DNA of 64,000 nucleotides from Moniliella sp. 'wahieum'. Its lineage: Eukaryota. The translations under genes were made by a program, and so were the position numbers. The notes beneath the pieces are model-generated. The model worked only from the letters and a program-made list of their open reading frames with translations, was not told the DNA's origin and made no database searches. Positions 8,485 to 62,194 of this stretch are shown piece after piece (position 1 is the stretch's first letter; each line of letters begins with the position of its first letter). The stretch spans positions 62,001-126,000 of the forward strand of contig RSEE01000081.1 in NCBI GenBank assembly GCA_003971905.1. The letters run 5' to 3'.

Positions 8485-10373
8485 GGCCTCGGATTGCTCC
8501 TTCCAACATCAAGTCAACTTGGGCTTGGGATGGTGGAATGGTGGAACGGTATGGTGATCGCTTGGCCGTCTCGGATCCTCTCGCATCCTCTCGGATCACT
8601 CCCCCCCCACCCCGTCTTCTTCCGTTCCTCCTTCACACTTCCTCCTTCCCCCTTCACACCCCTTCGCTTTTCCCCTTGCTCTTCCTGCACTTACCTATCG
8701 CCTATCGACTGTGATGGGCTGGGGCAGAAGAGCACATCGCACACCCCCCCTCCCCCTTGATGTCTGCTCCTGCTTACCCTTAGGCCCCACCTCCACTCCC
8801 CCACTCCCCCGCTTTCCCCTTTCCCCGCTCCCCGCTCGCTCCCCAGCAAAGATAAGATGGGAAGTGCCACCGGGGGTGGACGTCGACTGGCCACAGCGCT
8901 TCCCTGTTCGTTTCCGACCGAGTACTGAGTCCTGATTCAATATTCAGGCCCAATTGATTGCTTTATATGTGCTTGGAGGCCGAACAGGCCCCACCGTCAC
9001 GGTTCCCCGGTCAGACGCATGGAACCGGCCGCGCGCTAGCTACTACCATACAAACTTATATCATCCAGGCGTGCTACCTCGTTCGAGCCGAACAGTGACT
9101 AGTGACTAGTGACTTGGCTTCATGGGACTGACACTATACATCCATTAACCATGAGTTGAAACGCGCGCCTAGCCCAGTGGAGAGGTGGGTCGTTTTCCCG
9201 CCCATCGACGTGTCAGAGCGGGGCGAAGCACTGATGAGGATGCTGGATACCGCCGATGTTGGATACCGATGCTGGATACCGATGCCGGCGGATAGAGAGA
9301 CGGCGGGGCGTTGTTGGATAGGTGAGTCGGAAGACCGGCTCGCGAGGACGTACAAAAGCCAATGAGATGTGCGAAAAGGGTAGAAACATGAGGACATGAG
9401 ACATGAGGCACGAGGCATGCATGACTAGATGACTGGGGACGAGGTGACTGCAGTGGCGATACTACCATCCATACTTCGCTAGCAGTCGTGATGGACGCAA
9501 TGCGCGTGATCATCTCAGTACACTCAGTACACTCAGTACTCACTGCGCTGCCCCCCCTCCATCAACGTTCAACCCCCAAGTCCCACGCCACCAATGTTCG
9601 TCCAGGCAACCCAGGCAAGAATATGCCCTTCGAAAGGTGCGTCCAGGAGATGTTGGCGAGCACAGGCGTACCCAATGTCCCGCCCCCGTACCACGGCCAG
9701 GGTCCATGTGCCTCACCGCGGGACCGAGCCACAGGTATGTGAGGAACGCACAACGGGGAAGGGTGTAGGGTCAACGTTCAACGTTGGACGATTGTTTGCA
9801 TAGGGTGGGCGTCCAGAGATCCAGAGTGGACATTCCCTTGCTCGGTTGGCTCACTCTCACCAAGCAGAAACAGGTGCTGCTGGCTGCGTGGAGAATGCGC
9901 TTGGGCAACCTGGTGATCCGAGTGCCCCTTGTTTCGGTACCACCCACAACCTTGCCCACCCAATCGCCGCCTCGTGCGTGCGAAACCGCAGACCGAGATG
10001 ACAAGCCGTACAAAACCGTGCGCCCTGACCGAGCACAGGGGGGACTAGGCCCACGCCTCCCAACGTGTGCGCTCAACACATTGCATACGCCCCCCAGTAA
10101 ACTGGGCATCGTGCCTGGCCGAGGCGCTACCACGCAGGCCGTTCAGGCGAGGAGAGCCGAGGCCGCGGGCACCATCCAACGCAGGGCCGTACCGCGCGAC
10201 AGAGCAGCAGCGCACAAAAGTAAAAGAGAAGGCGGTAAGAGACCAAGGACGTTGGTAGCATCATATCACCGAGGAGGCGACCTGAGACTTATTTCTTATC
10301 CATCCCGATCGAGCGTTCCACTGCAGCTCCCAAGGAGCTTGGTCTAGTTGCTGCGCCAGGTCGGGTGGGCACC

Positions 10374-11344
10374 TTACTTGGGCCCATGTTGTCGCCTCGT
10401 ATTGGTTGTCAACTTGGCTGCCAACCGACGCGCAGCTACCGAGGAAGAGGGAGCGCGATGAAGGGAGGGAGGAGGAAGACAAGGAAGACAAGGAAGAAGA
10501 AGTAGAGCCCAGGGGGCGGGTTGTAGTGTGGGGCCGAGAGCGCGAGGCAGTCTGCTTGGCCTCATGCCACAGCCGATGTGCCTCCTTCGTCGGTGGAGGG
10601 GGCAGAAGCGACGGGAGGACGCCCAGCCAAGGCGGGCACGCACTTCGTCCTCGTTGCGCTGCACACCAAACGCACGCCACTTGTCCTGCCGCAAGTGCGC
10701 ACGCAGTTTGGCGTTCTGCTGCGCTGGATCGGACCAGAACTTGTCCTGGTCCTCTTGCAGTTCGGCCGTGCGCTGCTCACCCCGCCGCCGCACCCGCTCC
10801 GTTGATCGAGTCTTTTCCCGCACGGTAAATGGGTCTTCTTCCTTAGGTGCCAACCCATCGGCAACTGTAGCGGGGGGGGAGAGGAGGTAAGGTCAGTACT
10901 ATTATCCCGGTGCAAAATCAACGTGACGAAGAGAAAGAAGAAGAAAACAGACAACGTACATTCGTGGCTCCAAGTTCCTGCTCGTTCATCGTCCCAGGAC
11001 GTGACGCGCTCCCGCACGCCATGGACAGCAACGTAGCGTGTATGTTGGGGATCGGTCTCGATGGCAAAGCGAGCAGAGCAGGAGGGGCAGGAGGCGGAAA
11101 GCGCCAGACAGGGATGGAGATACGTAGATACCTGTTTCTTGTCCGCATTGAACCGCCGTCCTTTGGCGATCGACTGGCCACACGCTTGGCACACCACATC
11201 CACCGGCATGGCAAAGCGCACGACCAAGCTTCCGTGCTCAGCTAGCTTGCGCGCGCGCGCGCCCAACGGATGGGCTTTGTTGAAGGGCTCGTAGCGGGGG
11301 TCCATGTCGGGCGGGTAGTACCGCCCCATGTTGAAGCCCTGCAT
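10374..11344 (-). CDS. CWC16-family splicing factor, CCDC130/Saf4 (YJU2B) type
   Basis: 'MQGFNMGRYYPPD...HPLGARARKL..GSLVVRFAMP...CQAC...GRRFNADKKQV', 'CPSC...IETDPQHTRY', 'EDPF', 'WSDPAQQNAKLR'. Probable intron ~10870-10960. Confidence 0.9.
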
Positions 11345-12826
11345 GGTGGGGCAACCGCCGAGCACGCTGCGCTCGCGCTGGGCCAGGGAAGACGGTGGAG
11401 GGCAGGCGGTGGCAGCCTTGGTGGTGCGCTCCGGGGCTGACGCAGGCGATGGCGCTGCAATGTTCAAACGTCCATGGAGGATTTTGATTTCACCAGCTGC
11501 TGACGTACTGTGGTTCAGTCGACGTCACGTGACGAAGGCCGCAGGCTTGATATGACGTCAAGCTTCAAGTGTCGCGTCGTACGGAAAATCGTCTGGTCTG
11601 CGTCAGTACTCAGTACGTACTCAGACGAAGAGGGCCCTGGGGACATGATGGGTACCATGGGTGCCCATCTCGGGGGAATCAGATCTCAGATCGGACGTTG
11701 GACCCGTAGAGGCGGCTCCGCAGGCAAGCCAGCGTGGGCTGGCCACCGGCTACCCTGTCCGACCCTGTCCCACGTCGAGAGGGGGATCGATCTAGCCGAG
11801 GGATCTGGCCTCTGGGATCGCATCGATCGGAACACCGACAAGCGCAGAGGGGCGCCACGCCAGAGCTAGCGCCTCCCAAACGGTACAACATACACCGTAG
11901 TACCACACGATACATACTAGAAGTAGGCATTCTCTTCCGTCTGGGCTTCTGCAGGCCAGCATTGCCTCGCTTGAAGCTCACAGCTCCCCTGGCTTAGCTG
12001 CTAACGTAGCCGACGTAGGGCCTAGGGCCTAACGCGTGCGTAACGCTAACGCGCAACGGAGAAGGCGATTGAGAATTGAGATCTCAGAATTGAGTCTAAG
12101 ATCTGAGATCAAGACTGGGATCTGAGATCTGAGAATGCACTGCTCCACCGACGGCAGCGCGAGCTTGTGGCATGTGAGCCGCTGCGCTGCATTTGCAATT
12201 GGGAGCCATCAAAGACTATCGACAGCGACGCCCTGAGTCCCAGGCCTTAGGCCTTAGGCCGGCCTTAGGCCCCTTCGACCTGATGACGCGGACGCCCCTG
12301 GACGCTCTGTCCTACATATATCGTACGGGGCCCTGCGGTGGCTGGGCGTGCCTGGGCGCCTGGACCCGCATGCACATGCTCTTTAGATCGTAAGAGGTGG
12401 ATGATCGATGAGGCGGATCGAAACCCCAGGTTCTCCGATGCTCACAAGTATTCAATGCTTGCGGTGCAGCCAAGAATTAATGCGACCTGCGCCGCGTCAA
12501 GAACAAAAAAGACCACGAGGCAGGCACGAACGAGCGAGGGAGGATCCCCTGGATCCCCCCACACCTCCCCCGTGTCACATGGAACTCTGGACTCACACTC
12601 TACGCAAGCTATCCCTTAAGGCACAATTGGTAGGCAGTAGGCGCAGGCAGGCTCCAATGCACACCCCACACCCCAGCACCCAACACCCAGATACGCCGAC
12701 ATCGATTCGACAGACTAGGAAAGAAAGCCGAAAGCCGCAAGCCGCAAGCCAAACGCCAAACGCGGGGTGACGGTGACTAGATGACTAGGGAGTGTGCTGT
12801 GGGGCACGACTTGCAGAATCATATCA

Positions 12827-14884: not shown

Positions 14885-16523
14885 AAAGGGGGGAGAGGGA
14901 GAGATGAGCGAGGCGGGCTACCGCGTCTGCGTCTGTGTGGAGTAGGTGTGGCCGGGTGAGGGGCAGAGGTTTGGAGGGGGGGGGACGGAAGAGGAGGGCA
15001 TGCGGAGGGGAGGGGAGAGGGCAAAGCAAAGCAAAGCAGTGTCCAGGCCAGGGCAACTAGAAGCGAGGACCACAGCGTTGCCCCGCACGCAAAAGGAGGA
15101 GGAGGGGAAAAGGTGGAGGAGGGGACGATGACGGTGTGGGACCAGAGAGGAGAGAGGTGATATTAGGCGTGGACAGGTGGGTGCCGAGACGACTGCCGGC
15201 CATTGGCTCCCTCTTGGCAGACAGCCGCGCGGCCACCGTCGGAGGATCGATGATGGTTGGTCCCGGTTTCCACCATTCTATCGATGGATCGGGGAGATCT
15301 GAATATCTGAATCTGAGGTGAGGATCTCAGTCTGAGATACTGACTAAACGGCTGAGCTCAGCCGCTTAACTGAGCGTCTGAGTCTAACCACTAGTCCCTA
15401 CGCCGTGTACGATCCTACAAGCGTACTCAGTCTGGTACTCCGTGTCGTCAGCGTCCTCAATGTGTAGTCAGTACTCAGTGTACTCGGATTCAAAGTTACT
15501 CCGCACTACGTACTACCCCTTCTGTAGCGCTTTGGAGGCGGGGGCTGGCGTGGCCTGGATGATATGGATGCGGCCGACAGGGTGACATGTGGCGTGCGCC
15601 ATGTGGCGGAAGCATCGATCATTGATCATCGACCATCGATCATCAATCCGACGCCGACAGCCCCCTTGGGATCGATGATCCGTCGCTGCCATCCCACATC
15701 CCACACTCAGGAACGACGCCACCAACCCCCGGTGCTCCAGTGCTGCCTGCCTGGCTGCCCCAGATCGCGCCCCATCCGACGGTCGCATCGATGGACGAGC
15801 GTCGCTGCGGCCAATGCCCGATGCGACGGAAGCGAGGCAGAGAGCAGTGCACGGCAGGGCACCCTCCGCTACCCGTCAGGCGTCAGGCGCGGACACTGAG
15901 CGCGTACTGAGCTCAGGACCTCACATTGTCACTGGTGAGGGCCACCGCACTCTGGCTTCTCCACGTGGGTCGATCGGTAGGCGCAGCACAGCACAGCACA
16001 CGCTCAGTACTCGCCGTACTTACCGGTCACTAGGTCCCTAGTCGGACTAGTCGGACTAGTCAGAGGCCAGATCTCAGATCTCAGATCTGAGACCTCATTT
16101 CAGACCCAGGCAATTCCGCATTCTGTATTCCTTCAGAATGGCCTCTTGTGTACATTTGTGTACGAGCCAAGCCACCCCTCTGCTCATCGAGCTCATCGCT
16201 ATGTGCAACGCAGGCACCCAATAGCCCTTTCCGATCCACGCCTCTCCCCGCACCCATTTGGGCAGGCGAGCAGTGTTTCTCTCCTTCGTGCTCTCGTCAT
16301 CGATCATCGACCATCGCGCCACCCTCCACATCCTTCATCGACGCCTGCCCGGTGCGCACTGGCACGCTCGCCAGAGCTTCCGCTTCCGCACGACATCCTC
16401 CCTGTCCCGCTCCACCATCCAATAGTTGTGCCGCTGTTGTGCAAAGTTTTGTATACCTGCAAAGAACGACCGAGGAGTATTTATACCTGTCTTACTCAAA
16501 TACTGCGGGATCTGAAGGCCAGA

Positions 16524-16638
16524 GACGTCGTGACGTCACTCCTCTGAAGGTCAAATTTGTTGCCAACGTCACTACCTGAAACGGTCATCAGATGATACGT
16601 CGTCAACGTCACCCCCCTCTGACGGTCAGATACGTCAG
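16524..16638 (+). repeat. Three imperfect direct repeats ACGTCAC-n-CTGA-n-GGTCA, rich in CRE-like ACGTCA
   Basis: Copies begin at ~16533, ~16566 and ~16606. Confidence 0.65.
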
Positions 16639-17616
16639 CGAGGTGTCCATGGGCGGCATCCGACAAATCTGGTCCTCTTAGGCTCGCTCTCCCTATAATG
16701 GGTTACTACAGCTACTACACATACTACTACTCTTCTTTTCGAGCACCATCGAATGTTGTGCAAGCGTTTTTGAGGGTATACTGTTTTGCGTTGCGATGAG
16801 TCAATATGGATTTGTGGGCTCGCCATTGAGACGTCTTGGAAATGTATAAGCGCGAAATCACTCAGTCCCAGAATCGTCTGTGCGGTCGTCGTCATCGCCG
16901 TCTGCACCCTCTGCACCAAGAGAGGTTGACTGCAGTGCCTTCATTGTCCCCTGGCGAACATGCGACAGAATTCGATAATTCTTACCCAGTGTGGCAGGGG
17001 CGTGACATTGTGCGTCGCTTGCGCTGTCTTGATCGTCATCTACTGTATCATTTGCCTACGCGTTTTCCTCATCAGCTGCCGCTGAACGGCCAAAAATCAG
17101 CTTTGCATCGGGCTGCAGGCGGTCATAGTGACCGGAAATGGGGCTGAACACACATTGACATTGGAATGGGGCGAGATGGTGCGGATCGAGAGGGTATGTA
17201 CGATGATGGTTGGGCCGTCGGGGGTCGAATAGAGCAAAAGCCAATTCGACAAGGAAGCCAAGTGCAAGATGCGCACTCAACAACCTCTCCGGACGAACAG
17301 CACACACATCTTGGAGATGACAAAAAACTGGTATAGTGCAAATAATAGCCAGGGCCGGTTGGGTTTGGGACCGATGGTGTCATGATAATCAACCCCATCC
17401 CTCTAGAAATACGCATGTTTTCTCGGGGTCAGGTAAGGTAGTATCCTCTCACCGCTGCGCTCTCAGAGTGTTCAGTGCTTGGTCCGCTTCTAGCTACCAG
17501 GAAGCTTTTCTTTCGAGGACTTCCCGTAACACGGGCGGTCATGAAAAATGAATATGTTGCTTCGGCCAACCAAATCAGCCAAAAATGAATTACCCCTCCC
17601 GAAGGAGGTTTGGATA

Positions 17617-17685
17617 CTTTGGCCACATGAGGCTAAGGGTTATGGCCACATGCGGTCAAGGGCTTTGGCCATATGCTTTCAAGCG
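17617..17685 (+). repeat. 23-bp imperfect tandem repeat x3
   Basis: ctttggccacatgaggctaaggg / ttatggccacatgcggtcaaggg / ctttggccatatgctttcaagcg. Confidence 0.8.
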
Positions 17686-17836
17686 CTTATCCCAAATGCG
17701 CAAACGCTTAACTGTTGATTGGATGTGTGCTTGTATCGGCTCTCTAACCGGCTGGTTGGGGCTCGCATCAGTGCAGAAAACTAGTAGAAATTTACAGGCA
17801 GGGCATCACTAAGGTATAGAATGCATTCTAAAGTCA

Positions 17837-23448: not shown

Positions 23449-24027
23449 ATCGGCGGATGGGATGCGTTCCACTTGATTCCCTGATCGGCCTGATCCCTAT
23501 GCTTGCTGGATAGCCGCCCTGGTTCCAGGGGAGGTGGATGGGCAAGGGAAAGCTGTGCTGCGGGGCCGTGGTTATGGCTGTGACTTTGGTTGTGGCAAAT
23601 AGGTGGAAGTGAAGCATGACTCTTGAAGCCACGTGGGTTGGGACCTGGTATTTGCTGTCGCTCGCAAGGGCCAGTCCCTAGTCCAGCCCCGTTGGCCGGA
23701 AGGATAGACAGAGCCTACTATGGCTCATTGGTAGCAAGTCAGCACCTAGGAACTGGGAAAGCTCTCGTCCTGATGCGGAATGCGCGTCATCGCAATCGCA
23801 ATCGTAATCCGATTGACTGGATCAGCTCAGCCAGTGTTTCAAAACAACCCAGACGCAAAATTGTCTGTCAAAAAACGATCCCCAGCGCCTTTCGGCTTGT
23901 GGGCGGTCAGGGTTCGCGCCACCGCCCTCAGCACGTTTTGTTGTTGCCGCCCCACCTCCACCTCCACCTCCACCCCCACATCCACCCCCACATCCCCCGT
24001 CCCACCCCCTCTCGCGGCCCAGGTTCA

Positions 24028-24369: not shown

Positions 24370-25053
24370 GCCTAACCAGCTTCGCAGCTTCACGATGCAA
24401 GCTTCAAGCTTCAAGCCTCATGGTTCACGGTTTAAGCTACCTTCAAGCTTCATGCATCATGCATCATGATTCAAATGCGAACCGCCTTGGCGCCTGGACA
24501 TCGGTGCCTGGACGACCCTGCCGCGCCCACACCATCGTTCTTTGACCTGGGCTTTACTTGTGTCTTGTCTTTTTCTTTGCTCATCCAACTGTCCGTCCTG
24601 TATCCATCTACCCCCTACCCCCAACCCCAACCCCCAACCCCCCAAAAGATGCACTGAGCATGTCCATCTGTATACTACCTACTACCTACTACCCCCCGAC
24701 CCCTGTCCACAGTCCCGTCCAGTCCAGTCGGGCGGGGACCGCAACCGCACGGCAACTACAACGGTAACAGCAACCGCAAGCATGCACGTTGCATCCGCCT
24801 ACTTCGACGGGGTGTGTGGTCGTAGAATGAACAGTCATTGGCGCCCATGCGAGCGTTATTGGACTTTTTGGGCGGGGTGATGAGGTGCGACAAAAGATGG
24901 GTAGTACGGCGCCAAAGCCCCCCCCCCCCCCCCCGAGGGGGCAAGCTAGAAAGGAGCGATCTCCAATGTAGAAAGCAAGATCGCATGGTACATGTCACAT
25001 GTCACATGTCACGCTCGTGCCTGGGCGCCCCGCACCTACTGAGGCCATGGGTC

Positions 25054-28284: not shown

Positions 28285-28351
<67 letters not shown>

Positions 28352-32817: not shown

Positions 32818-35688
32818 GGTGGGTTGGTTGAGCTAGGCAAGGCGCGAGGCGGCCAACGCGTGCCGCCCAATGCGCATGGCCGCCGCAATTTCACACCGCA
32901 AGCGCTACGCTCCACCGACGCGTCGCGTCCGTTTCAAAGTTTTCTTTCTGTAGGAGGATCGATTAGGTAACAGAGTGGAGAGCGTTGAAATGTTTTCACC
33001 TTTGGACTGGAAGGATGGCATTGTGCATCACGCATCGTGTATCATGCATTGTGTATCGTGTCCCACCAGTCACTGTGATCTGATAGCATCACACACTACA
33101 TCACATGTGACAGTAGCGGAGTTGGTGGGTGTTCGGCATGCGGATGCGAATTGGACCCAGCGCCCACCAGCCAACCCAGCCGCACCTTCTTCTTGTCGCC
33201 CTGCTCCCACGTCCCATTTTCCACTCGAGTGTACCACTTACTCAGTATTCAGTCTGAGTACGAACTCAGTTACTCACGGTACTCACCACAACTCAGTGCA
33301 CTACGCTCTCCCAATCGGAATCCACTCCCAGTCCAAACCCACGACGGCCAAATGCATTGAGAGGCGGTTCGGAATGGGGCGGTCCATCGGTATCTTCTCT
33401 TCTGTATCATCGATCATCAGGGGTCGTCATCGTTCATCAGGCGTCACTGGTCACCGCTCGCCGTCCTAAACGTCTAAATCTAAACCCTCATCCACGTCTT
33501 TTCCTTTGTGGGCCTTCTATAGAAATGGACGTGTTCTAGGAGAAGGCTTGTTCCCACACGCTCGATCCATTGGGCCGCGTGCGGCATTTAATTTGGCCCC
33601 GTTGGATTACTGGGTCCATGCCAAACGCCAACGGTTGGTTGCTGGTGCATGGTGGTACCTTCCAGCCAAAACAGAGCGGTGTGGATGTGGTCGTAATCTG
33701 GTAGCACAGTATAGTAAAACGTTTGATCTCGCTCCAATTTCCAATTTCTTCGTCTCGAGCGTCTCGCTTCTTCCCTGTTTCTTCCACTTCGCACCAGGTC
33801 CTCTGTTCTTGCTTCTTCCCCACGAACGATTGCTACGCCCCTTGGCCGCGCCTACTTCCCGATTCTGGTCTCCCTTGCCTTAGCCCTGACTGTGACAGCT
33901 TCCAGTGGCCTTTTGCCCGACCTGCCACTTGTTCGTAGCGTGCCAGCAGTTGGTTCCGCTTAGTCCTTAGGGCGCTTAGGGCTCAGGGAGGCCCGTTCGG
34001 TGCTCAGTGCTTCACACCGTTGCAAACTCGACTGGGACTAAGATGAGAGGATACGATGCTAGGATGCTGAGAAACGGGATGAATATACCGATGAATAGTT
34101 AACCGTTAACCGTTAACAGCCAAACTACGGCAACATCTAAGATCTGATATCTCAGATCTGGCGTTAAACGTTGAACCTGTTGAACGTTGAGAACGTAAAA
34201 CGGTGTGCAAGAAGGGGGGGGAGAGAGAGTGGCGGGGAAGAAGGGAGTCGGACGGGGAAAGAAGATCCGTCTGGAGGTGTGGGGATAGTTCAAAAACGGA
34301 AAAAGGGACAAAAAGGGGAACCCTTGGAAACGGAACAGAAGGCCCGCGCGACGTGTTCTTTTTGCACACTCAGAGTACTCAGTTACTCGGTGCACCATAT
34401 ACTTTCGTGCGAGGCGTGCGAGTGTGCACAAGAGCCTCTGTATATGCACGTGGGACGCCCTGTCCAGTTTGCGCTCCAAAGGGGCCCAAGGAATGTTTGG
34501 GGTAGTTTCAAGAAGGGTAAAGGTGCCAGTGTTTCTACTGTGAGAGGATAGCTGTCCCCCACTGATGTGTGCAAAAGGTCTAAGCACATTGTCTCGACTC
34601 GCCCACAAAAAAAGCAAGTATATCAGAGAGGCCCTCTCTTTCCAGATCCGGCACCTAACGAGAGGGTGTGTGGGGGACACGAGGGGCTCAGGAATATACG
34701 GCTGGCAGAAGACGGGCCAGGACACGCCAAGACGATGCCACGCAACCATGCCGTACCAAGGTGAATTCGACAGGGCACTCGTCTGGACTGGGGGGTATTG
34801 GTGGGTGTACCGAGTGCGATCGTATGTACGGCCATCCGTGTGATGTGACAAACGACAGTGGTGGTGGGCTGGTGACATGGGTGGGCTTGGGTGGCATGTG
34901 CGTGTGAGGGTGCTGGCGGTGGATGATGGATGGGTGCAGCGGGGCAGTGGATCTGCGATGCAATCGTGACGCGTGATGCGTGAAGGCTGATGCTGATAGG
35001 GACGCTTGAACAGTTGAACAGTGGTGCGAGCCGAAGGCAGAGCCGAGTGCGCAAGCCCCGCGCATGGGTGGGCCACGGGGCGAGTATGCGTCGCGGCCTG
35101 GCGCGGGACGAGTGGCGGGGGCCGAGTGCATCGCGAAAGTCAGCAGGGCGCATGGGCAGGCGAGGGCGCAGGTAACTAGTAACTAGCCACTGCTGCCCAC
35201 GGTGGCCTCCAGCCACCCGCCCATTAGCGCGCACCCGCACTAGCCTGCTCTTGCTTAGCAAGCACCCATGCGCTTGTGCGTGCCCAAGCGCATGGGCAGC
35301 ACGCCGTGCTTGAATGCTGCCCGGGTGGTTGTTGCTCCTCTTCTTCTCTCCCACACCACCACCGCCCAGCCCTTGCTCCCCGCCCCCGTCCTCCTCCCCT
35401 CCCCGTTTTTTTCCCCCCTGCGCCCTTTCGCGCCCCCCCTCCCCCCCGCACCAGTCCGTTGTGCCTCCCCTCCCCCTCCCATGCCCATGCCCTAAGGCCT
35501 GCCTGCCCTTCTCTGCCGTCCCGTCGCATCTGCATCCGCATCCCTCCCGCCTCCTTCGCATCCATCTCCCTCATTCTCTCTTCTCTGGTCGTCGTTCCTC
35601 TTCTCGTCTTCATCTTCCGTCCCCCCTCTTCTCGTCTTCATCTTCCGTCCCCCCTCTTGTCCTCCACCGCATCCGTGCCCATCCGCAC

Positions 35689-39347: not shown

Positions 39348-40822
39348 GCCTGGGGAGAAACGGGGACGGGAACGGCAAGGGCCCAATGTGTGGCTATATA
39401 CGGAGGGGGAAAGGTGGGATTCACCTTGCTTTTTCCATGCAGCTTCGAGCTTCAAAACTTAACCTTCAAGCTTCAAGCTTCAAGCTTCAACTGAAGGGCT
39501 CAGCTCGAACGCGGGGAAACGTACGAAGTGCGCAGCGTCAGGGCCTCTAGTCCTCAAGCTTCAAGCTTCAAGATCGATCAGTATACAGAGTTGGACTGCA
39601 CGACAATGTCAACTTCAACTTCAACTCCGTGTGCGGAACGGGTGGGGCAAGACGTTGCATGTTACATGTTGCTGGCTGAGCATTCGCTGAATGCTGAATG
39701 GTATCGTTCATTCAGTGGTTCGTGCAGTACTCAGTCTCATCGATCTCAGTACTCATCAGTCGCTGTGACATGTGACATGTGACCACATTCATCATTTTGT
39801 GCATTACTGTGATTAATGATTGGAGAGATCAGACAGATCTCAGAGAAGAGATCGCGATCGGGGGGGGGGATAGTCGATAGACACTCGGTACTGGGCAGGC
39901 ACAATGCGCAACCTGACATTAAGAGGAACTACTACGTACTACGCGAGGCTTCTTTCCTTCGCGCTTGGCGCTTGGCGTTTACGCGTTTTACGCACCAGTA
40001 TAGGATGGTGTGTGTATTCTGATGCTTTCAGGGGCCTCACCGATCATCGATCTTCTTAGGATCTTAGGCCTCTCTGAGGCCTGAGCCCCAGGCCTCACGC
40101 CCTTGGCTTGCCGCAGCCTCAGCGCCTCAGCGCAGCGCAGCATCACAAAGCTTGTCCGTGTTGCCGCGATGCTCCGCAGGCGGTGGAATATGGAATGGTA
40201 GTATCTCCAGGTGTTGGTTCTGCGCATTCGCATATTCACAATCATTAATCACGCGTCACACTCATCTGAATTTCTTGGCAATGTCGCACTGGTCGTGTTC
40301 GTTGAACGTTCAACGTTGAACGTTGAACACTGAATGTGGTGAGCGTTTGAATGGAGTCGATATATACGGCTCTGGTTTTCCCCACAGCACCGTCACCTGG
40401 AACGGGGAACCAAAGTGCTGTTATGCTTAGTGTGCTTATGCCGTGTGGTTGGGGGGCAGAAGACAGCAGCTGTGGTTCAAGGTCCAAGCTTCAGTGGTGA
40501 ACGTTGGACGTTGGACGTTGGACCCAGACGGAGGTGAACTATGACATGATGACAGGAGCCAACAGAAGGGGTCTCTCTCTCGCCTCTACACCCGCTCGGT
40601 TCAACGTTCAACGTTCAACCAGGATCCAAAGCAGGACCTAACGTACGAGCCACCGATTGATCTGTCCAAGGATTTATACCCCTAACTGGGGGGTTCCACC
40701 TCGGGACCCCCCTCCCATGACACCTATAGTATACCTCACTCACAAGTTTGCAAATGCACAGTTGCGTTATAGATTCAACAACTGTCCCGCAAGCTGATAT
40801 CCTAGAACTTGTGTTTGCTTGG

Positions 40823-41882: not shown

Positions 41883-42986
41883 GGAGGGCGTAGTAGAAGG
41901 TGGGGAGAAAGGGGTGGGTTGGGTGTGGTGGTGCGGAGGGTACAAAGGGCAATGGGAAGAACGTGTTGGTACGACGCTAAACTCTGAACGTTGAACGTTG
42001 AACCCTCGCGTTGCTGTGGAGCCAACAATCCCTATCCCATCTCAGCCAAGAAGAGTCGTTAAATACACCAGGCGTTGTGGGGTGGTCCACTCTCTCAAAC
42101 ATCACACCGGTGGCGCCCATCCACTTCACTGAGATGTTAAGCTCCTGGCGATACCGTCAAGAAGCCCCTGGGATATGGGCTTAGTTGGGAATGCAATAAG
42201 GGGACATTGCTGTGGGTAGGGGCATGGGGCGGATGCTGAGAGTCCCCTGGTTACTAGTTATTTTATAGCGCAAGTAAGGGGGAAGGGGCGACACCCCATT
42301 AGTACCACGGCGTACTTACGAAGTCCACTGATCCCATCATCTACATCTAAAAGCAACTGAAGCGACCTACCAAGTCAAGCCACACCATCAACAATTTGGT
42401 ATGCTCACCGGTCACCCCGTTCCACCCGAAGTGAGGAGCCGATAGAGAACTCGAGCTGTCCCATTCGGCTGTTTCTGCCCCTTCCTTGAGCTCCTTACGA
42501 GAATGAACTCGGAGGAGATGGATGTTTTCATCAACGAAAGTCATCCGAAAGCCCCCCGCTGCACACGACCTATTTTGCTCCCGTTCCACCTACCGTGCTG
42601 ATCCGCCGTGGGATCAGAGACACCCACCCACTTTGACTTGCGCGCAGGAGACAACAAGGCACAGGCTGAGGCAGGAGTGTACGACACCAGACGGATAGGG
42701 GGCACGTTGGGTGATGGTTCGCAGTGGCTGGGAGCCGTTGCTGGCTTGCCGGATGGTGCGAGTCAATCACAACCGTTTGAAATACCCTGGCGGGCCTCGC
42801 TGACGTAACACCATGGATTACATCTCACGATCTCACCCCTGGTCCTACTGCCTCGTGAAAGACCTATAGCAAGGGCGCTTCCTGGCTTCTCGAACTTATG
42901 GCTGCACGCTGGTACCTATCATCGCCCCAAGGAAAATGTACGAAGGCATAGAATGCATACGTGGTCAAGCACAGAGCTCGAATTTT

Positions 42987-43970
<984 letters not shown>

Positions 43971-44911
43971 ATGGGTGCTACTCGTGGCCAGAAGGAAGCT
44001 TGGTTTGCCAAGCTCAACGAGCTGCTCGAGGCTTACAACTCGATCTTCTTCGTCAATGTCGACAATGTCGGCTCGCAGCAGATGCACCAGATTCGTGCTG
44101 CTCTCCGTGGCAAGGCTGTTGTCCTGATGGGCAAGAACACCATGGCCCGCCGTGCCATTCGCCAGATCGTTGGCGAGAAGCCGCAGTACGAGAAGATCCT
44201 GCCTGCTGTCCGTGGCAACATTGGCTTTGTCTTCACCAACGACGACCTGAAGGAGGTTCGTGACTTGATCCTCGAGAACCGTGTCGCTGCCCCCGCTCGT
44301 GCTGGTGCCTTTGCGCCCGCCGATGTGGTTGTCAAGGCTGGCAACACCGGTATGGAGCCCGGCAAGACCTCGTTCTTCCAGGCCCTCAACATCCCCACCA
44401 AGATTGCCCGTGGTACCATTGAGATTGTCTCGGACGTCCGTGTGGTGGAGGGTGGCACTCGTGTCGGCACTTCGGAGGCGACGCTGCTCAACATGCTCAA
44501 CATCTCCCCCTTCACCTACGGTATGAGCGTCACCTCGATCTACGACAACGGCAACGTGTTTGACAACTCGGTGCTGGACGTCAAGGAGGAGGACCCTTGT
44601 TGCCTCCTTCCTGGCTGGTGTCCGCCAGATTGCTTCGATCTCGCTCGCGATCAACTACCCCACCATTGTGTCGGTACCCACTCGCTCGTCAACACCTACA
44701 AGGACCTCATCGCCATTGCCCTGGCGACCGAGATTGACTTTGAGGGTGCTGCTCAGGCCAAGGAGTACCTCGCCAACCCCGAGGCGTTCGCCGTCGCTGC
44801 TGCTCCCGCTGCTGCTGCGGCGGCGCGGCCGAGGCTGCCCCCGCCGAGGAGAAGAAGGAGGAGGAGGAGGAGGAGTCTGACGACGACATGGGCTTTGGTC
44901 TGTTCGACTAA
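43971..44911 (+). CDS. RPP0: 60S acidic ribosomal protein P0 (uL10); indels after ~44595
   Basis: '[27 protein letters not shown]', '[14 protein letters not shown]', terminal '[13 protein letters not shown]'. Confidence 0.99.
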
Positions 44912-45300
44912 ACCTTTCTTCGTTTCTTCTTCCCCAACCCTGCTCCAACTCGGTACGCTGCTGCACTCGTCCCCGTACAGTGTTGCAATGCTGTCAAAAT
45001 GCATCCTGGAGCCGCTTAGGCTACCGGTTCGCACGTTACCTTGCGTTCGATGTTTGCTTGCCATAGCCCGTTGTTTCATATCATAGCCTTTCGTTTCCCA
45101 CCGCGTTTGGTGTGACTTTTCTATGTGTACGCTCGGCACGGAATGTGCAAGATGGAGAGAGGACGTGGTAATAGTTCCGTGAGGGCAGACATTAAGAAGG
45201 GGAAGTATGGACAGATGAAATACAGCCAGGTGATGGGGCAGGAGGGCGGTCGCAAGCGCAAGCGCAACGATAATAGGAGTGACAGTGTCCCTCCTTTCGC

Positions 45301-47734: not shown

Positions 47735-50016
47735 GGTGATGAGAGTGGAGGGGGTGGTGGTGTGAGGGAAGCAAGTGGCGTAGCAGGCGAAGAGCGAAAG
47801 AGAATAACGGCCCGCACAGAGTGGTAAGAGAGAAGCAGGAAGAAGAAACAGCTGCTGGCAAGGGGGGTGGGAAGGGCGGACTGGGTAAGTTTGCAACGCT
47901 GTGGATCGGCTTAAAACAGCGGAAGGGGCCAGAGTTTTATACGCGTGAATATTGAATAATCCTGTGATCATCGGTGCCTGACGACATCCATGTGCTCTCT
48001 GCTGCCTGGGGGCCCTATCTCTTTGGGCAGAGGAGGTGGAAAGGTGTTCAAAGCGCTAACCTCATAGCCCGGCGCCTGTGGCATACGCCGAAGGCGATGG
48101 CCGCACTATCCAGCCCGCTCTCCACCCCACACGTATGCAGCGTGTGACATGTGCATGTGAGGCGTGAGGCTCAGGCCGGCAGGGCCCGATCATTGATTCA
48201 CCACGATAAGATAAAGAGAGTGTGGATCAAACCCCTCACGCGCCCTGCGCCTGGCGCCCTTTCGTTGGATCAAAAGCGGGTATGAACAGGAGCAAACACC
48301 GACGGACTATTCGTCGTATTGGATGGACTACCAAGAGAGCTATCGACTCAATGTGATGACTGGGACGTTTTCACCAGCGTTCCTGGACCGTTTCCAGTTC
48401 ACACGGTCCAATAACACATCCCATATCCCACCCCATCCCATCCAACGCCCCCAGGGGAAACGGCACCGCCGCCACAATTCTTTCACATGGAGGAGAGAGC
48501 GTTTACCTATATCCGCAGACTAGACGGATCATCGATCATACCTCCCTCTGAAGTCCTGTCGTCTATTGCTTGAGCTTCCGGTTCCCTTTGGACGCTGAGC
48601 CTCCGCCTCACGCTAAGCAGATGCTGGGCCATCGGTTGATGCGGACGTTGGGCGTTGAACGTGTTGAACCCGAACAGAGCCGTAGATAAAGCCCGGGCGC
48701 GGCTAGGGCGCACTCAGACAGATCTCACTGCCCGTTCTTTCTTTTCGGTCCAAGGGTGGGGGGGTGTGGGGCCCAAAAGGGTACGGAGGCAATAATGGAT
48801 GATGGAGGGCAATCCTTACTCGTCAACCATCAACGTCAACCATCGAGGGGAAGAGGACGACGAGCGGGAGGAAGGCAGGGTGCAGGTGTTGCCGAATGTC
48901 GGCCGACCGCCATTGAATGATGGCCACGTCGGGGCAACAGAGAAAGCAGCGGCTGAAATAGATATGGCCTGTCAATTACTGTCAATATCACTTGTCACGC
49001 ATCCCACAGCCCCGGGCACAAGGCAGGCGAGCGCGGGGTGCTGATGCGTGATGCGGTTGCCCCGGCCCGGGGCTTGGAGGGCGGCGCCGTCGGTCGAGTG
49101 CGCGGCGCCGCTGCGCTTCCGCCTGCAGCGGTGCAGCGTGCAGGGTGCAGGTGCTGGCGCCCCACCAGCCACTGCGGGTGCAGTCTCCAGCACATCACCC
49201 GTCCCATCATGCATCATGTATCCATCATGCATCAGTGACCCCCCCTCCCGCACTACGCCACAGCACGCCACATCCAGCCCGGCTATCTGAAATCTCGTGC
49301 ATCCACACAGCCGCTGTGCCGGCAGCGGAGAAGCCGCGTTAAACTTTTATCGCCCTCTGTCTGCGGCGCGTCGTCGGCGCCGCTGCTCCGCCTCAGCCGC
49401 TTCCTTCCCGCTTCGGCGCAGTAGCAGCCTCAGGCAGGGGATGAGGGGGGGGGGTTACATTTTACACGTTACGCTTATACGGTACGTTTCCTCCGCGTCG
49501 TGGGACCCAGGAACCCTTTGCCCACCCTCACCACCTCTATCTGTCTACGTCCGCCCTGCCCCTCCCCTCCCGTCGCTCCCGGGAGCACACACGAGCGTAG
49601 ATGGATGCGATCCAGCAGCATGCTTAGCGTTCGTCGTCGGAAACACAATGGACCCCGTGGGGGGATAGGAATAGGCAACTCTGGTCGGGGGAAGAACAGT
49701 GAGAAAGTGAGAAAGAAAGCGAGAAAGCGAGGGAGCAAGAGAGGGAAAAAGCGAAAGCAAGAGAACATGAGAACAAGAGAACAAGAAAGGGGTAGCACGA
49801 GCGTCTGGGGGCCAACACGGCTACCGAACCAAACATACCAGCGGCGGGGGGGAGAACGAGGGGATCAATGCTGGTTCAACGTCAACGTCAACGTTCAACG
49901 TTCAACGTTCACAAACCGCTCCTGGCCTCGGATGGGAACGAGGCCAGAGCCAATGCAAGTGGGGGGAAGAAGCAGAGGATTAAATGGAGGCTACGCGAGC
50001 CCTGTCCGGCCAGCCG

Positions 50017-55388
<5,372 letters not shown>

Positions 55389-56454
55389 TCCCCAAGTCCA
55401 GTTGCTCTTTGTACTCCTGGGATCGTGTGCGTCACAAGGAGCGTCGACAGCAGAAGGACGCCGCGGGCAGAGGAAGCGGATGGCAAGTGAGACCGAGCCT
55501 TGGGACGCGAGAAGCGACGGCGGATTATGGGGGCAGGCGGATCCGAGTCGTCGTCCTTCTCGCCCTCGTTGGGGGATCGTACGCGGGATCGAGGGCGGTG
55601 CGGGCAAGGAGCGGGTCAGGGCGGGGAGGGCTGCGGCGCAGAGGGCCCTCGTCGCGCAGGCCGAGCGCGGGGGGCAGGGGCGGGTCGGTGGTGGGATGGG
55701 AGGCGGAGGAGCTGAGTGCATAGGAGAGGGAGTGGGAGCGGAGCAGCGGAGGCAAGCTGGTGCGCTTGGATGCCAGGCGTGGGGGGGGGATGCGGGGCAG
55801 AGGCGCGGGGGGTGGCGCGGGGAGGGCGAGGGCGAGGCGAGGGCGAGGCAAGGCGGCGGGAGCACGGAGAGGAGGAGGAGGAGGGGGAGGAGGCCATGGC
55901 CGTGCACAGCCCACGCGAGGGCGGGGGGGGGGTGGCGGTGTGGGGGCGCGGAGAGAGAAGAAGAACAGCGTCTCTGCTGCGCTGCTCCGCTGGGCCGGAA
56001 CAAGACCAACACCAGCACGTGCCTCCGCCCAACAACCCAGCATCCCACGTGGAGCCCCGAGTACATTGAACATTGCAGATCCAGCGCTGCAACATTGCAC
56101 TCACCATCACTCTGTTACACCATGCTCCCCATCGCCATCAACATCATCAACATCATCAACATCCTTATCAACATCGTCCACATCAGTCATCCGTCATCAT
56201 CACACACCGCCCACGCCACCCCCCCCCCACCCTCTCCTTGCCTCACACAGCTTCTCACGCGGCAACATGCAAGTTCGAATTATGAAAAGCGGGCTGCCCA
56301 CCGCGCCTCCCCCCACCGTGGCACGGCAGAGGCAGCCAGCGGACAACACAAGAGCAAGATGATCAAAAAGGAACACGTCGCAGCAAAGCCAACGTCCTCC
56401 ATCCATAGAAGGCGGCAATCCATCCATCGCCCCCCCCCCCCACTGACGACCAAC

Positions 56455-59069
56455 CTACGTCGTCGATGCCGGCGGCAGCTCCTTGGCTGCGTTCATCATC
56501 GCCTGTGCCTTCTCCGCTTGGCCTTCGCGGTAGGCATCCGCTATCAAGCGCGACACGGCGCCAAGGTATGCGTCGCCCGGCTCGTTGCGGAAGAAAAAGA
56601 GAAGTGTCTCGGACAACTTGAGCAGCTCGGTCTGGGTCAGCGCAGCTTCCCGTTCTTGGCCATCCGCATGGCTGTCGTACGACCTCGTCCATACGTTGCC
56701 GCATGCAGATCAAATAGCCAACTGATCGCTTCCAACGGACCTTCCACGTGCATCACCCGATCTAACCCAGTCACCACATCTTGCAGACTAAGCCAGCCTT
56801 TGGAATCGGTATCCACCACCGGAACAAACGCTCCACCGTCTCGTGCTCCGGCACCTTGCGTTCAATCCGCTGTTGAAACCCATTCGAGACAATGTACTCG
56901 TCCCGCGCCACGTCGCCCCTCGCCCAAAAACAACCGGAACGCAGGCAAGCTGATCCGCATTTCCTTGTAGTCATTCTCCACGTCCACCTCGGCTGTGGCA
57001 CGGCGGCGGGCGCTTGTGCTTCCCCCGACTCGTCACCCGGCAGCCCGGGCAGATCGACAATTGGAACGGGCTCCGCTGCCCCAAAACGTGTCTTGTCCCC
57101 ACCGCCCCGGCCGGGGCTTGGGCAGACGTCTCACGAGGAAGGTGCTTGGCACGGTAAATGGCTTCGACCAGTTGGTCGTATAAAATCCGGCCTCGTCCTT
57201 GCTGAACCGGCCCATGTCATGCAAGTGCGCACGGCGGAACGTTTAGCAAACAACTCAATTTCTTGAATGATCTCGGTCCGGAACCGACGCCGTTCCGTCG
57301 CGATCGTCTCTTCGGTCACCGAGCCAAATTCGGGGAAAGCAACCACGAGCAGTTCTTGGAACTTCGTGATCTGGCGTTGGGGTTGGGACTGGTAGGATGG
57401 GCCGAGTTGCCCAGGCTGGCAAAGTAGCTTCATCAAATTTAAAAACGCACCATCGTCCGTCACTTCCAACAAGGCCTCGCCGTTGATTTTCAAAATGGCC
57501 AGACCAATTTGGAACAGCACGCGCGGACCCATTGCCATAAAGCAGTCACAGATCCGGAAGGCAAACACGAGCGGCATCGAGTTGATGTACAGCGAGAGGA
57601 ACCAGGGTAAGGAAGCCACGCTGAGCTGCACCTCGGTCTCAACCAAGTGGTCGTGCAAAAGAGGAAGCAACCGCTGTACCAGTTGCTCAAACACGCGCTG
57701 GTCCAGTAGCGTGCCCGACATGGATTGACTACCACCACCAAGGTCAGTTGGTTGCTGGCAAAAGCGGCGCACACAAGGCGCAATTGGGGGGAGGGGGAGG
57801 GGAGACGTACGTGTAGTAACCCGGCAGCAACCGATCGCACAATACATCCAGCAACCAGAAGCACTGTTCCTCCGACATGTAGATGAGGAACGCAGCTACA
57901 ATGATGTTCATCGCTTGGCAGTACCCTAGTTCGGGGTTCTTCCAACTGTACGCTGTTAGCACGCGCCGCAACGCCGCAAGCCCTTCCTCGGTCTGGTACC
58001 CGGGTACTCGGGCAAACTGCGATTGAGATCTTTCTCAATCTCCTCTGTGCTCGTACTTCGTCGTCCGGCATGGGCCTTGAGGATCTCGGCGTACTCGCCA
58101 GAATGACTAAAGCGGTGGTAGATGCTGCCCGTCATCAGTTCCCACAATTCACCCCTCAATCGGTTGGGGAGCCTACTTGGATCAGCCGCGTAAACTGCGG
58201 GTACCGAAGTAGGGTCATGTTGCGTCCGTGCGACAAGAGGTAGTCCCGCCACAACTTCATTTTAGAACGTTCCCGCAGCCTGACAAGAACAAGATCAGAT
58301 TCCAGGGTTAGGGTGGGTCAGTCGGTGTAGTGGACCTACGGTGCAGGCCCTGTCAACGTGTCAACGTACTTCCGTGGGTCACCAGGGTACTTGTAAATCG
58401 CACCCAGGCCGGCCAAGCTGTGCTCGCCCTCCCGCTCGCCGGTAAATTCGTCACCTTGTCGGCTCCTCGGTGAGAGCGTCTGTCGTCCGCCAGGGCATGA
58501 CGTACGATCCATCGGAGCAAAAGTCGTGCACAAAGGGCTTGAGACGCTTCATGTTACCCAGTTGTTGGCGCACTGGTCACGCAACGCGGAAGAGAAGAGC
58601 TCGCACTGCGGACGCAGCGCATTGAGCTGGACAATCTGATCCGGGGGAACCCGAGAATTGAAACGGTGCAGGGGGAGGGGGGGGGGTAGGGTCAGGATGG
58701 GAGACGCAAGCAAGAAGAAGGAGGAGGAAAAGTACGATCTTCAGCCATGCCACAGCGATGAGGCTGAGGGCAAACACGTTGGACCGCTGCACGTCCAGCC
58801 GCTCGACGCGGCGGATGCAGTAGAGCGGCAAGGACACGCGCAGGAGCGGCGGTCGAGCGAGGCGAAGCACAGGAAGGACTCGGTGAGCGCCAGGCGGCCC
58901 GCATACACCTGGTCCTCCTGCAGCTCGGGGCCGACGGAGGGGGAGGAGAGAGGAGAGGCGGGGAGCTCGTCGAGGGGCGCCTCGGTGGAGGGCAGGGTGA
59001 AGGCATAGGCGAAGAGCTCGGAGCGGGTGGGCTGGCGGTAGCGCGCGAGCGATGGGCGATGGTGGACAT
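56455..59069 (-). CDS. MDR1: TBC-domain Rab GTPase-activating protein with GRAM-like and EF-hand regions (Mdr1/Gyp2, TBC1D8/9 type)
   Basis: '[11 protein letters not shown]', '[14 protein letters not shown]', '[22 protein letters not shown]', 'LLDQRVFE', '[11 protein letters not shown]'. Confidence 0.92.
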
Positions 59070-59543
59070 GGCGGGGAAGATGCCCGGGGGAGATGGCGGT
59101 GTGGCTCCACGTTGCTCCGCTGAGGCTCAGACGCTAGCGGCGGGGGCGCTTACCTCATCGCTTGGGGGGCGCACGGCCACGGAGCAGGGCGCGTGCTCAC
59201 GTAAGCGCACGTGATTCAGCAGCGCCGGCACGCAGCCTGCGCCTGCGTCTCAGACGGCGCATGGCGGCGGGGGGGCAGTGTCCGGCTGCGGCGCTGGACG
59301 CCCAGCACAGGCACGCACGGGGGGCGGGGGCGCGAGACAGGCGCTGTGCCGGGGCGTGCGCTTCCGAGACAGGCTATTAAGTGCTCAGGCTGAGCGCTAA
59401 GCCTTAGCTAGTCCGACTGGGGCGACGACGCACGGAGGCTCAGCCGCAGCACTCAGCGCAGCCGCGGCTTGGCGCTTCTCCGGCCCTCACCTCCATCTCC
59501 ACCTCCACCTCCACCTCCACCTCACCTCCACCCCTGCCCCACC

Positions 59544-60612
59544 ATGCGCGGCTTTGGAAAGGCCATCTCTCGTGCCCCGCACATGCTACCAAGCGGGGCG
59601 GCCTCCCCGCCACCGCCGACCCCGAGTACGACGCCCTGGTCCAGCGCTTCGAAGACCTGGCCAAGTGCGCCACGCGCATGCGCCAGGACGCGGCCTCCTA
59701 CCGCCTGTGTGTGCAGAACATGCTCTGTCCTCCACCGCGTTTGGTGCTGGCCTTTCCAAGTTCTTTTCCCCTCGGCAGCGAGCCGCATGACTTGGTCGAG
59801 TCCCAGCCGCAGGGACGCAAAGCCCTCGCCACCCTCCCGGGTACGATGCGCTGATGGCCGACGTGCGCCAGACGGTCGGACCCGAGATTAAGCTGATTGA
59901 GACCAAGATTGTGGCGCCGCTCAAGGACTTTGAAAGCGGTGTGCGCGGCCATCCGTAAGAACCTGACCAAGCGGGACCATAAGCGGGTCGACTTGGAACG
60001 CCGCCTCGGCTCGTACGAAAAGGTAAAAACAAAAGGAGATCAAGACGCCCAAAGACGACAAGCACTGTTCAAAGTCGAACACGACTACGAGGCCAAGTCC
60101 GATTTCGATTACTTAACGATGCACTCAAGGCGGAGCTGCCACAGTTTTTATCATGGCGGTCAAGTTGGTGGTACCGCTGTGGTATTCGCTGTATTACATG
60201 CAGATCAACATCTTTACCTTTCGTACCATCTCATGGCACGCTTTTGGGACGACAAACTTCCTCTCGACAGGGAAGCCGAGACGATCAAGCCAGACTACCT
60301 CGCTGCACGGGTGACACGCTGGAGAAGATGGAACAGCTGTCTATCCATCACGATCCTGTGGCATCGGCATTGGTGATTGAGCGGTCCAAGATAGCCAAGG
60401 GCGCAGCCATTGTTGAAGCCAAGAAACGCGCTAGTGCAGAGGGGTATGTACCGGACAAACCGAGACGAGAAGCTCCTTATGTGATTGCCCTGTATGACTT
60501 TACCGCCCAAGCTGTTGGTGACCTCTCCTTCTCCGCCGGAGACAAGATCGAGGTCGTGTCGCGCACCGATTCGAGGCAGGATTGGTGGACGGGTAAGGTG
60601 CGTGGGGGGTAG
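59544..60612 (+). CDS. RVS167: BAR + SH3 protein, Rvs167/Hob1-like (frameshifted)
   Basis: 'MRGFGKAISRAPH', 'IRKNLTKRDHKRVD', SH3 'YVIALYDFTAQAVGDLSFSAGDKIEVVSRTDSRQDWWTG'. Exact orthology among BAR-SH3 paralogues is uncertain. Confidence 0.8.
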
Positions 60613-62194
60613 AGGGTGTCTTCCCTGGAAATTACAGTCGCGATCCGTGATTCGGTTGTGACGTGGGCACAAAAACAAGATACCCACATCCTTCTTGATA
60701 CCTTTCTCCTCCCCCCGCCGCTCGAACCGACTGTCCACTTGGGCTGGATGCTAGCCCAATATGCATACGACGTGTTACGCTCCTCCTTTTGATCACACAA
60801 CGACACAATTGATGAGTTCAGCGGTGATTCGTTTGCTTTGTTTGGAGTCTCTTTCTCCTATCGACAATCGATTTTAAGGACGTTTATTTGCTTTTCCTTC
60901 TCCCCCCGTCGGGCATAGTGAAATGAGTACCAGGTATTACGAGTTGAGCAGAACCAAGGGGTAGGAGCATTGACAACGAATCGTGTACAGGAGAGGTCGT
61001 ATACGTCTCCTGGTGTGGAGATGAAGCAGCGAGGGGAAGAAGTGAGAGGAAGAACTCTGGATGTCAGTGCCAACTCGCTTGGCACTGACAAGGCTGAAGG
61101 CAGAACGTTGAACATTCCCAAAGTTTTGCAGGCTGTTCAAAAGTGTTCGTTCAGGCCTCTCGGGCCTCAGCCGGTAAAGAAATACCCCTTGCTTAGGGGT
61201 CAGGCCCAAAAGCTTCAAGAGCCTTGTTCGCACTGCAATTCCTATATTCATAGACCTCGATCTGTCAGGTTTTACCGGGAACCCCACTTGTTATTGTGGA
61301 TCGATTGATCGATTGATCGGCTTGCTCAGACCTGGCATAGGATACTAACTTCAAGCTTCACCCCGCCCCGTACTAAGTACTGGTATCTTCATTGGGGATG
61401 GGGTTGTATTCTATCCAACAGTGCACTTTTTAGGTGGAGCCAAAAACCTATATACAAGGGTGGCTCGTGCGTCACAGATAAATGGTCATTGTCTCATCAG
61501 TGTCTTTTTACTAGTTACTCCCCTTCTTTAACTGTTCGCTAACCACTATGTACCGCCATCAATGTCTCCTCACCACTGTGGGACATCGTCGCGTCTATCA
61601 AACGGTGTTTCTTCATGCTATCCATCCGCGTTTGCTGTTGGGGCTACTGGTGTGTTGTGCCGGTGCCGGTGCTGCCATCAAAAAGTTGGTTGTTGTGGGA
61701 AGAGAAGGAAAATATACGCCTGACTAGCGTGAGTTTCTATACTCGCCAAGAGAGGGGTCCACCAGGGTGTCGACGAATGATGGAATGGGGAGGGGGGGGC
61801 GACTCAGCAAGAGCCGGTGGGGATGCGGCGGGGAGTTCGGCGATGGGTTGGGTCGAGGCAAGCGAGAGGTTAGTGGGTGGGTGCAAAAGCAGGCAGGATG
61901 GTCGATGGATCCGAGGCAGGTGGATTCTCTGTCGGCCAAAAAGCCACCCAAAAAGCCAGCTTTGCGGGGCGGCGATATATGCCCCACAGCCTAAGTCCAC
62001 ACTGCTCCCGTGCCCGCCCAGCCGCCTCGTGCGGACGCCAGGGGGCGGAATGGCGCACACAGACACAGTGCCCCGTCCCAGGGCGCTGCACGTGCTCTGG
62101 CCCAAAAAGCAAGCCTGCGCAGTCGGTCCGTAGCACCCCCGCCTCTCTTCACCCATCCACCGCCACCGCCATTGCCATCGCCATTGCCATCGCC

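Follow-up and report, generated by a model that had tools for sequence, protein, structure and literature searches.

The intergenic DNA of Moniliella sp. 'wahieum' is interspersed with short tandem arrays in which a T-N-A triplet alternates with a four-base palindrome, and each heptamer unit of these arrays is probably a scar left by a cut-and-paste transposon that inserted once and was excised again. We characterized the arrays in a stretch of 64,000 nucleotides (C81:62001-126000; hereafter the window, whose positions are counted from its first base) and in the assembly to which it belongs (69.5 Mb in 223 contigs, designated by C-numbers). The evidence comes from the geometry of the inserted bases, from homeologous contigs that serve as natural before/after alleles, and from a CACTA-like element whose target duplication obeys the same rule.

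Heptamer arrays are a genome-wide, non-coding feature

The ribosomal P0 protein encoded in the window finds its best match in Tilletiaria anomala (82%), and the source is thus a smut-related basidiomycete. Several genome copies coexist within the assembly, with the RPS31-RPP0 locus on at least six contigs, a divergence that would be as expected of a hybrid, a polyploid or a mixed sample. (When window positions 42930-44915 are compared with C103, C35, C46, C5, C27, C36 and C21, RPS31 is seen on eight contigs, RPP0 on six and polyubiquitin at four loci.) Contig C103, the sister haplotype, is collinear with the whole window at 3.6% mismatches, while C35 and C46 form a more distant homeologous pair. 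Allele comparisons across these and other homeologous contigs amounted to 123,524 aligned columns, of which 4,750 are mismatched (two of eight extra pairs could not be aligned and contributed nothing), and motif counts were made in a main sample of 464 kb comprising the window and 40 stretches chosen by coordinate.

A sequence-only reading of the window had listed 18 intergenic stretches built from T[C/G]A and one of eight mixed-base palindromes. All 18 are present, 17 of them with one or more exact T[C/G]A-core-T[C/G]A matches; the stretch at 15613-15648 has none, and those at 12068-12135 and 39726-39754 are compounds of mixed cores. The predicted enrichment is clear, with 47 exact matches in the window against a mean of 1.5 (maximum 7) in 100 local Markov surrogates, and one array 20-mer occurs 276 times genome-wide against 3 for its reversed control. 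Among periods 3 to 13 in the main sample, palindromic units are enriched at period 7 only, where they make up 187 of 344 perfect arrays (10.7% expected), in keeping with the periodicity first described. The grammar is wider than proposed: 175 of the 187 arrays consist of an A....T unit plus one base, yet this spacer, the middle base of T-N-A, is A or T in 38 of the 175, and all 16 four-base palindromes serve as cores, the GC-only CCGG, CGCG, GGCC and GCGC commonly. The rule is therefore T-N-A plus any four-base palindrome. Spacer flips within arrays are real but rare (31 flips, 23 transitions and 14 other transversions in 497 adjacent unit pairs), a minor extra to which both mutation and inversion contribute. 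Arrays most often have a length of 12, made up of TNA, core, TNA and two further matching bases.

Such units, hereafter scars, occur at 0.55-0.79 per kb in all contig groups with at least 50 kb sampled. Their location outside coding sequences was borne out: none of 52 matches falls inside 10,256 bp of hand-set gene spans (most Pfam-backed) that hold 328 of 2,032 TNA sites, and coding-like period-3 flanks accompany 3 of 302 scar sites compared with 12.4% of random TNA sites. The arrays are thus confirmed as real, genome-wide and non-coding. In 120 metagenome loci selected because they contain an AGCT heptamer array, scars with other cores were found at 0.03 per kb, against 0.61 in the source genome, and the grammar is accordingly particular to this genome among the sequences compared.

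The palindromic core is copied from the host flank

Motif counts single out one geometry, TNA+YY+Y'Y'+TNA+YY, in which the inserted Y'Y' is the reverse complement of the adjacent flank (603 occurrences against 3.25 expected); other splits stay close to background or are much less frequent. The palindromic core is a copy of two neighbouring host bases and not element sequence. For this reason the earlier argument that the diversity of cores speaks against one transposon fails. Footprints built of element ends, which would have a constant core, were likewise rejected, as the cores follow the flank and the non-templated junction bases have no fixed pair.

The same product is caught between alleles. 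Of 52 clean 7-bp indels, 20 lie at a TNA site and equal exactly the predicted product or its mirror image (XX-TNA-YY becoming XX-TNA-YY-Y'Y'-TNA-YY); by our reading of the list, 14 arose from a repeat-free site and 6 added a unit to an array. Allowing at most one mismatch, the prediction also fits 5 of 7 14-bp, 5 of 22 9-bp and 3 of 26 8-bp indels. Examples in the window lie at 12108, 12820, 15368, 39550 and 61507, and the indel at 33642 has the same geometry on the triplet TGG. Starting from a repeat-free site, slippage cannot produce those 14 indels: first units contain two inverted bases missing from the empty allele rather than direct copies, and an origin as slippage-born microsatellites was discarded on that ground, while later units may owe their existence to slippage. 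Scars arise at about 1 per 130 mismatches in the homeolog alignments. Where C62 and C17 differ by an exact 7-bp scar, in four cases, it is always C17 that shows the gain, which hints that the subgenomes are not equally active.

A solo long terminal repeat (LTR) family of ~860 bp with TG...CA ends reveals the direction of change. Seventeen copies were fetched, 13 of them flanked by exact 5-bp duplications. At the site TG-TCA-TG, the right-templated, left-templated and 9-bp products occur in three different copies; CC-TTA-TC yielded two different products; and GT-TCA-AC is single in 12 copies, with two to three units in the five others, the window and C103.

The junction series points to hairpin-sealed target duplications

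Besides the +7 product, a series of rarer junctions was counted on both strands of the main sample. Two 7-mers separated by two inverted bases occur 41 times (0.4 expected), by one inverted base 41 times (1.2 expected) and around both inverted pairs (2+2) 9 times (0 expected), and plain non-palindromic 7-bp duplications number 90 (2.8 expected). The 8-, 9- and 11-bp forms keep two whole XX-TNA-YY 7-mers around one to four inverted bases. Together with the series of products at single LTR sites, these forms indicate remnants of a target duplication on both sides, and they point to a 7-bp duplication whose flanks would have been sealed as hairpins. For Artemis at V(D)J coding ends, hairpins are described as being opened 1-3 nucleotides off the tip, most often at 2 (PMC3528771). 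Large insertions and deletions between haplotypes (1,017 bp, 462 bp and others) were inspected and showed no 7-bp TNA duplication.

A CACTA-like element duplicates the same 7-bp target

Matching an end pattern (an end pair on C11) followed by a DNA search of the genome uncovered a family of five near-full copies of 4.85-4.97 kb and two partial copies. Four aligned copies are 99.5-99.8% identical. The elements end in ~78-bp inverted repeats, all copies beginning CT-CACTG, and carry TTCCGTA-type subterminal repeats with an 11-bp spacing at both ends. Exact 7-bp NN-TNA-NN duplications flank four of the five copies (GTTGATG twice on C35 and on C34, GATCATG twice on C23 and CATCAAC twice on C29), and TNA is likewise central at the orphan element ends on C149 and C66 and at all six element sites that were not chosen by pattern. 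On C46, the counterpart of the C35 insertion is an empty site with one GTTGATG, a pre-insertion state and not a scar. To judge from these near-identical copies and flanking duplications, this appears to be a bona fide, recently mobile 7-bp family.

Besides an LTR fragment, the copies retain no more than vestiges of a Transposase_21-type core, in which an H-x3-H and an E motif can be seen, and they are on this basis predicted to be non-autonomous. In tblastn the element core matches proteins P0041 (E values 4e-9 to 9e-13) and P0018 (6e-6; Pfam Transposase_21); none of seven element frames gave a Pfam match. Transposase_21-type genes lie on C17 (~556-559 kb), C62 (~282 kb) and C34 (~513-517 kb), the C17/C62 gene being kept in two homeologous contigs; no inverted ends were found within 10 kb of these loci, and a search for longer proteins with one of the three gave no match. 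They are candidates for a domesticated or helper transposase. Elsewhere, a guessed end pattern gave 26 matches, of which 20 were fetched and none was an element, and a scan for terminal inverted repeats in DNA sampled before the family's discovery found no element. Profile searches with PF05699 (hAT), Plavaka and PF18758 (KDZ) had no match, but their positive controls were also silent. A PIF/Harbinger origin with its 3-bp TNA/TWA duplication was rejected, since the duplication is 7 bp and DDE_Tnp_4 (PF13359) had no match.

A model for scar formation

The element would land on a 7-bp XX-T-N-A-YY site and duplicate it. At excision, we infer, both host ends are sealed as blunt hairpins, which, judging by the junction series, would be opened mostly two bases off the tip to give a four-base palindromic overhang per end. 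End joining with one overhang kept would add 7 bp as TNA-YYY'Y'-TNA or TNA-X'X'XX-TNA, joining with neither inverted pair would add 7 bp as a plain duplication, and joining with one or both pairs atop two whole 7-mers would add 8, 9 or 11 bp. The scar would itself be a palindromic site with perfectly matching overhangs, open to renewed hits and, from at least two units on, to slippage, so that arrays could grow; scars would persist where they are harmless, outside coding DNA. An excess of isolated scars on already palindromic sites (44 of 184, against a 10.6% background) fits such re-targeting.

Occurrences in the window

The stretches concerned are given below, with the state of C103 where it differs.
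9094-9114: (AG-TGA-CT)x3 array, core CTAG; five units in C103
9514-9539: 9-bp form, 7-mer plus two inverted bases plus 7-mer (9522-9537), repeated; one unit fewer in C103
9771-9786: ACGT-core array
11603-11624: GTAC-core array with a single exact unit pair
12068-12135: compound array with a plain 7-bp duplication (12068-12081) and GATC cores; two more AGCT units at 12108 in C103
12242-12271: TTA/GGCC array with an 11-bp form (12252-12269), missed by the sequence-only reading
15613-15648: degenerate TCGA-core array
15874-15912: plain 7-bp duplication on TCA (15874-15887) and 11-bp form (15895-15912)
16068-16092: GATC-core array with one spacer flip
16182-16197: 9-bp form; single 7-mer in C103
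22458-22471: plain 7-bp duplication with TGA at its centre; the 7-mer stands once in C103
24398-24468: AGCT-core (24398-24416) and TGCA-core (24450-24468) arrays directly past a yippee-like gene
24990-25012: CATG-core array; one unit fewer in C103
33641-33654: off-consensus scar with triplet TGG and flank-copied core TGCA; single site in C103
39464-39572: a pair of AGCT-core arrays; at the place of the second (39554-39572), C103 has one CC-TCA-AG site
39726-39783: compound GTAC/TCGA array and CATG array, both differing from C103 by whole units
40300-40328: ACGT-core array with a spacer flip
40569-40723: 155-bp piece of the solo-LTR family containing an ACGT array (40599-40619); three units in the window, two in C103, one in 12 of 17 other copies
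41985-42003: ACGT-core array upstream of a riboflavin-synthase-like gene
49206-49234: TGCA-core array; shorter by 21 bp in C103
49874-49911: ACGT-core array including two 6-bp units
61349-61360: lone AGCT-core scar, closing the range first described
61506-61519: TTA/CTAG scar; single site in C103

Other differences are larger: a ~390-bp segment (33729-34118) is inverted in C103, which also has a 1,017-bp insertion at 34621 that shows neither inverted ends nor a clear target duplication, and is longer by ~420 bases where the LTR fragment ends (40712-40724). The ~360 bp at 16594-16953 match a non-syntenic stretch of C35 at 77% and are probably another dispersed repeat.

Comparison with known systems

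A close parallel is offered by the P nucleotides at V(D)J coding joints, products of a RAG/Transib-type system, which are described as even palindromes at the cut with 1-3 inverted bases, 2 dominant (PMC3528771, PMC8533500). In contrast to the joints of these accounts, the ends here are copies of a 7-bp target duplication and create a tandem unit, untemplated additions are not dominant, and the scars number tens of thousands in the germline. Ac/Ds (hAT) footprints in Candida albicans, yeast and plants similarly show palindromic insertions at empty donor sites through hairpin resolution and end joining, but are described as heterogeneous and centred on the complement of the element-adjacent base, which makes them odd (PMC5873905); the cores here are even four-base palindromes, fixed in size and tied to T-N-A.

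With the fungal CACTA/EnSpm-like elements CNIRT6 and CNEST and with the CMCT clade, the element shares CACTG inverted ends, subterminal repeats and H-x3-H/E remnants, whereas CMCT-type elements are reported to duplicate 2-5 bp (3 bp; TA) (PMC12810828, PMC12730594) and ours duplicates 7 bp on T-N-A and bears an extra CT outside CACTG. It would work like a CACTA element, yet it departs from two defining features of the group, the CACT[A/G]/CA termini and the 2-5-bp duplication. Fungal 7-bp duplications are reported for hAT7 and Kyakuja of basidiomycetes, which belong to other transposase superfamilies; Kyakuja lacks inverted ends, unlike the element with its ~78-bp repeats, and the sections consulted of the cited paper describe no TNA rule or footprint series for either (PMC12730594).

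Tiny intergenic repeats are also described in a smut, the 10-bp repeats of Ustilago maydis that were suggested to be transposon footprints (PMC4081816), a possible parallel to the scars. The sequence-only reading had named U. maydis heptamers (ATTCACG/ATTCGTG), on which a literature search by motif found no paper; opposite window position 60653, C103 contains a short run of (CGTGATT)n, a TNA-centred plain duplication similar to that unconfirmed heptamer. A review of tandem repeats derived from transposable elements treats, in the part consulted, repeats made of element sequence and not excision scars (PMC9659126), and excision of Muta1 is described as mostly precise when its duplication is present (PMC5225508). 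In the literature searched, which left most subscription journals outside, neither repeats of this class nor a CACTA-like duplication of 7 bp were found described. Both the chemistry of excision footprints and the idea are already known; the density here is very unusual.

Weighing the transposon-scar model and its alternatives

Several observations weigh against the transposon as author of the scars. Genome searches found no intact transposase for the CACTA-like family, and no donor site was seen both element-filled and as a scar. The copy at C11:228241-233089 has unlike TNA 7-mers on its two sides, which suggests that two copies recombined or that the assembly is mis-joined there. A density of 0.69 per kb, extrapolated over the 69.5 Mb, amounts to ~48,000 scars, which stand in an odd ratio to five to seven element copies. 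TGATG is present in 5 of 8 element sites but in 19 of 182 single scars, with similar shares in other scar forms; because the element sites are narrower, other or earlier families probably contributed, and the element's own family may not be the sole author. The 17 LTR copies were the top matches to the window copy, a sample biased toward array-bearing copies, and some of the GTTCAAC gains may go back to a common ancestor. Slippage would explain equally well the 6 of 20 exact indels that extend an existing array by a unit, and the assembly contains many 1-bp errors.

Going beyond single cycles, an undescribed CACTA-related lineage with a 7-bp T-N-A target and RAG-like blunt flank hairpins might act as a standing mutator that jumps without multiplying, has left the ~48,000 scars and re-targets them, a proposal to which we give slightly under an even chance. 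The disproportion between scars and elements, near 10,000 to one, also invites a hit-and-run process, in which a transposase, possibly encoded by the C17/C62 or C34 single-copy genes, inserts and immediately takes out again substrates that are tiny or short-lived, working as a standing mutator instead of mobilizing ordinary elements. The breadth of the scar targets relative to those of the resident family, and Transposase_21-type genes with no inverted ends within 10 kb, one of them retained in two homeologous contigs, agree with it. We nonetheless regard it as unlikely: the assembly shows the candidate genes broken up into several reading frames, a recently mobile family with the same target rule is at hand, and about one scar per 130 mismatches would require ordinary transposition rates only.

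Replication or repair template switching by fold-back synthesis, followed by slippage and with no transposon involved, has a slim chance of being correct. It would account for spacer flips being about twice as frequent as other transversions (31 versus 14), for the growth of long arrays by slippage and for the few scars on non-TNA triplets, but it leaves the strict T-N-A and 2+2 geometry, the two whole 7-mers in the 9- and 11-bp forms and the lack of enrichment at periods 3, 5, 9 and 11 without explanation; the near absence of other cores from the metagenome AGCT-array loci (0.03 versus 0.61 per kb) and the presence of an element with the same 7-bp rule also argue against it. Fold-back at any palindrome is ruled out by the confinement of the enrichment to period 7 and T-N-A. 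The sequence-only reading had offered a generic process, including hairpin repair, or else a dyad code: a mutational process with hairpin repair, rather than one transcription factor site, is what the data support, but one tied to T-N-A and a 7-bp geometry rather than generic.

That a dimeric protein reads a TGA-N4-TCA dyad or similar code kept by selection is very improbable. Although the sites are intergenic and dyads with a palindromic core are 4.2x enriched, those with a non-palindromic core are depleted (124 against 177 expected, 0.70x), and direct repeats dominate (393 versus 54; TCA-core-TCA, 393 versus 12 expected). The cores follow the flank, moreover, and sites are gained and lost between haplotypes and within dead LTR copies. 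Selection through the TGA or TAA that T-N-A always places on one strand was also discarded, as it leaves both the period and the palindromic core unaccounted for. Basecalling or assembly error can hardly be the cause: the 588 one-base indels in 62 kb aligned with C103 and the many frameshifted genes (RPP0 near 44600, in the region 43971-44911) point to an unpolished long-read assembly, but many arrays sit at the same place in the separately assembled sister contig, arrays avoid coding DNA, and the element's empty and filled sites follow the same rule.

Implications

No function for the arrays is indicated. Repeated insertion and excision at T-N-A sites looks to have given rise, scar by scar, to a new class of short repeats, a route for the birth of tandem repeats through transposon traffic rather than slippage or element sequence, the first step of which is backed by before/after alleles. 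If the standing-mutator proposal is true, much of the genome's mid-sized insertions and an entire class of microsatellites would stem from this traffic as a main source, and the genome would hold a bulk record of CACTA-like excision chemistry. The scars would in turn constitute a large natural record of CACTA-like cutting, with blunt flank hairpins, and of fungal hairpin opening and joining, from which the exact product of any excision event can be predicted. They may also allow a test of the old suggestion that the tiny repeats of smut genomes are transposon footprints.

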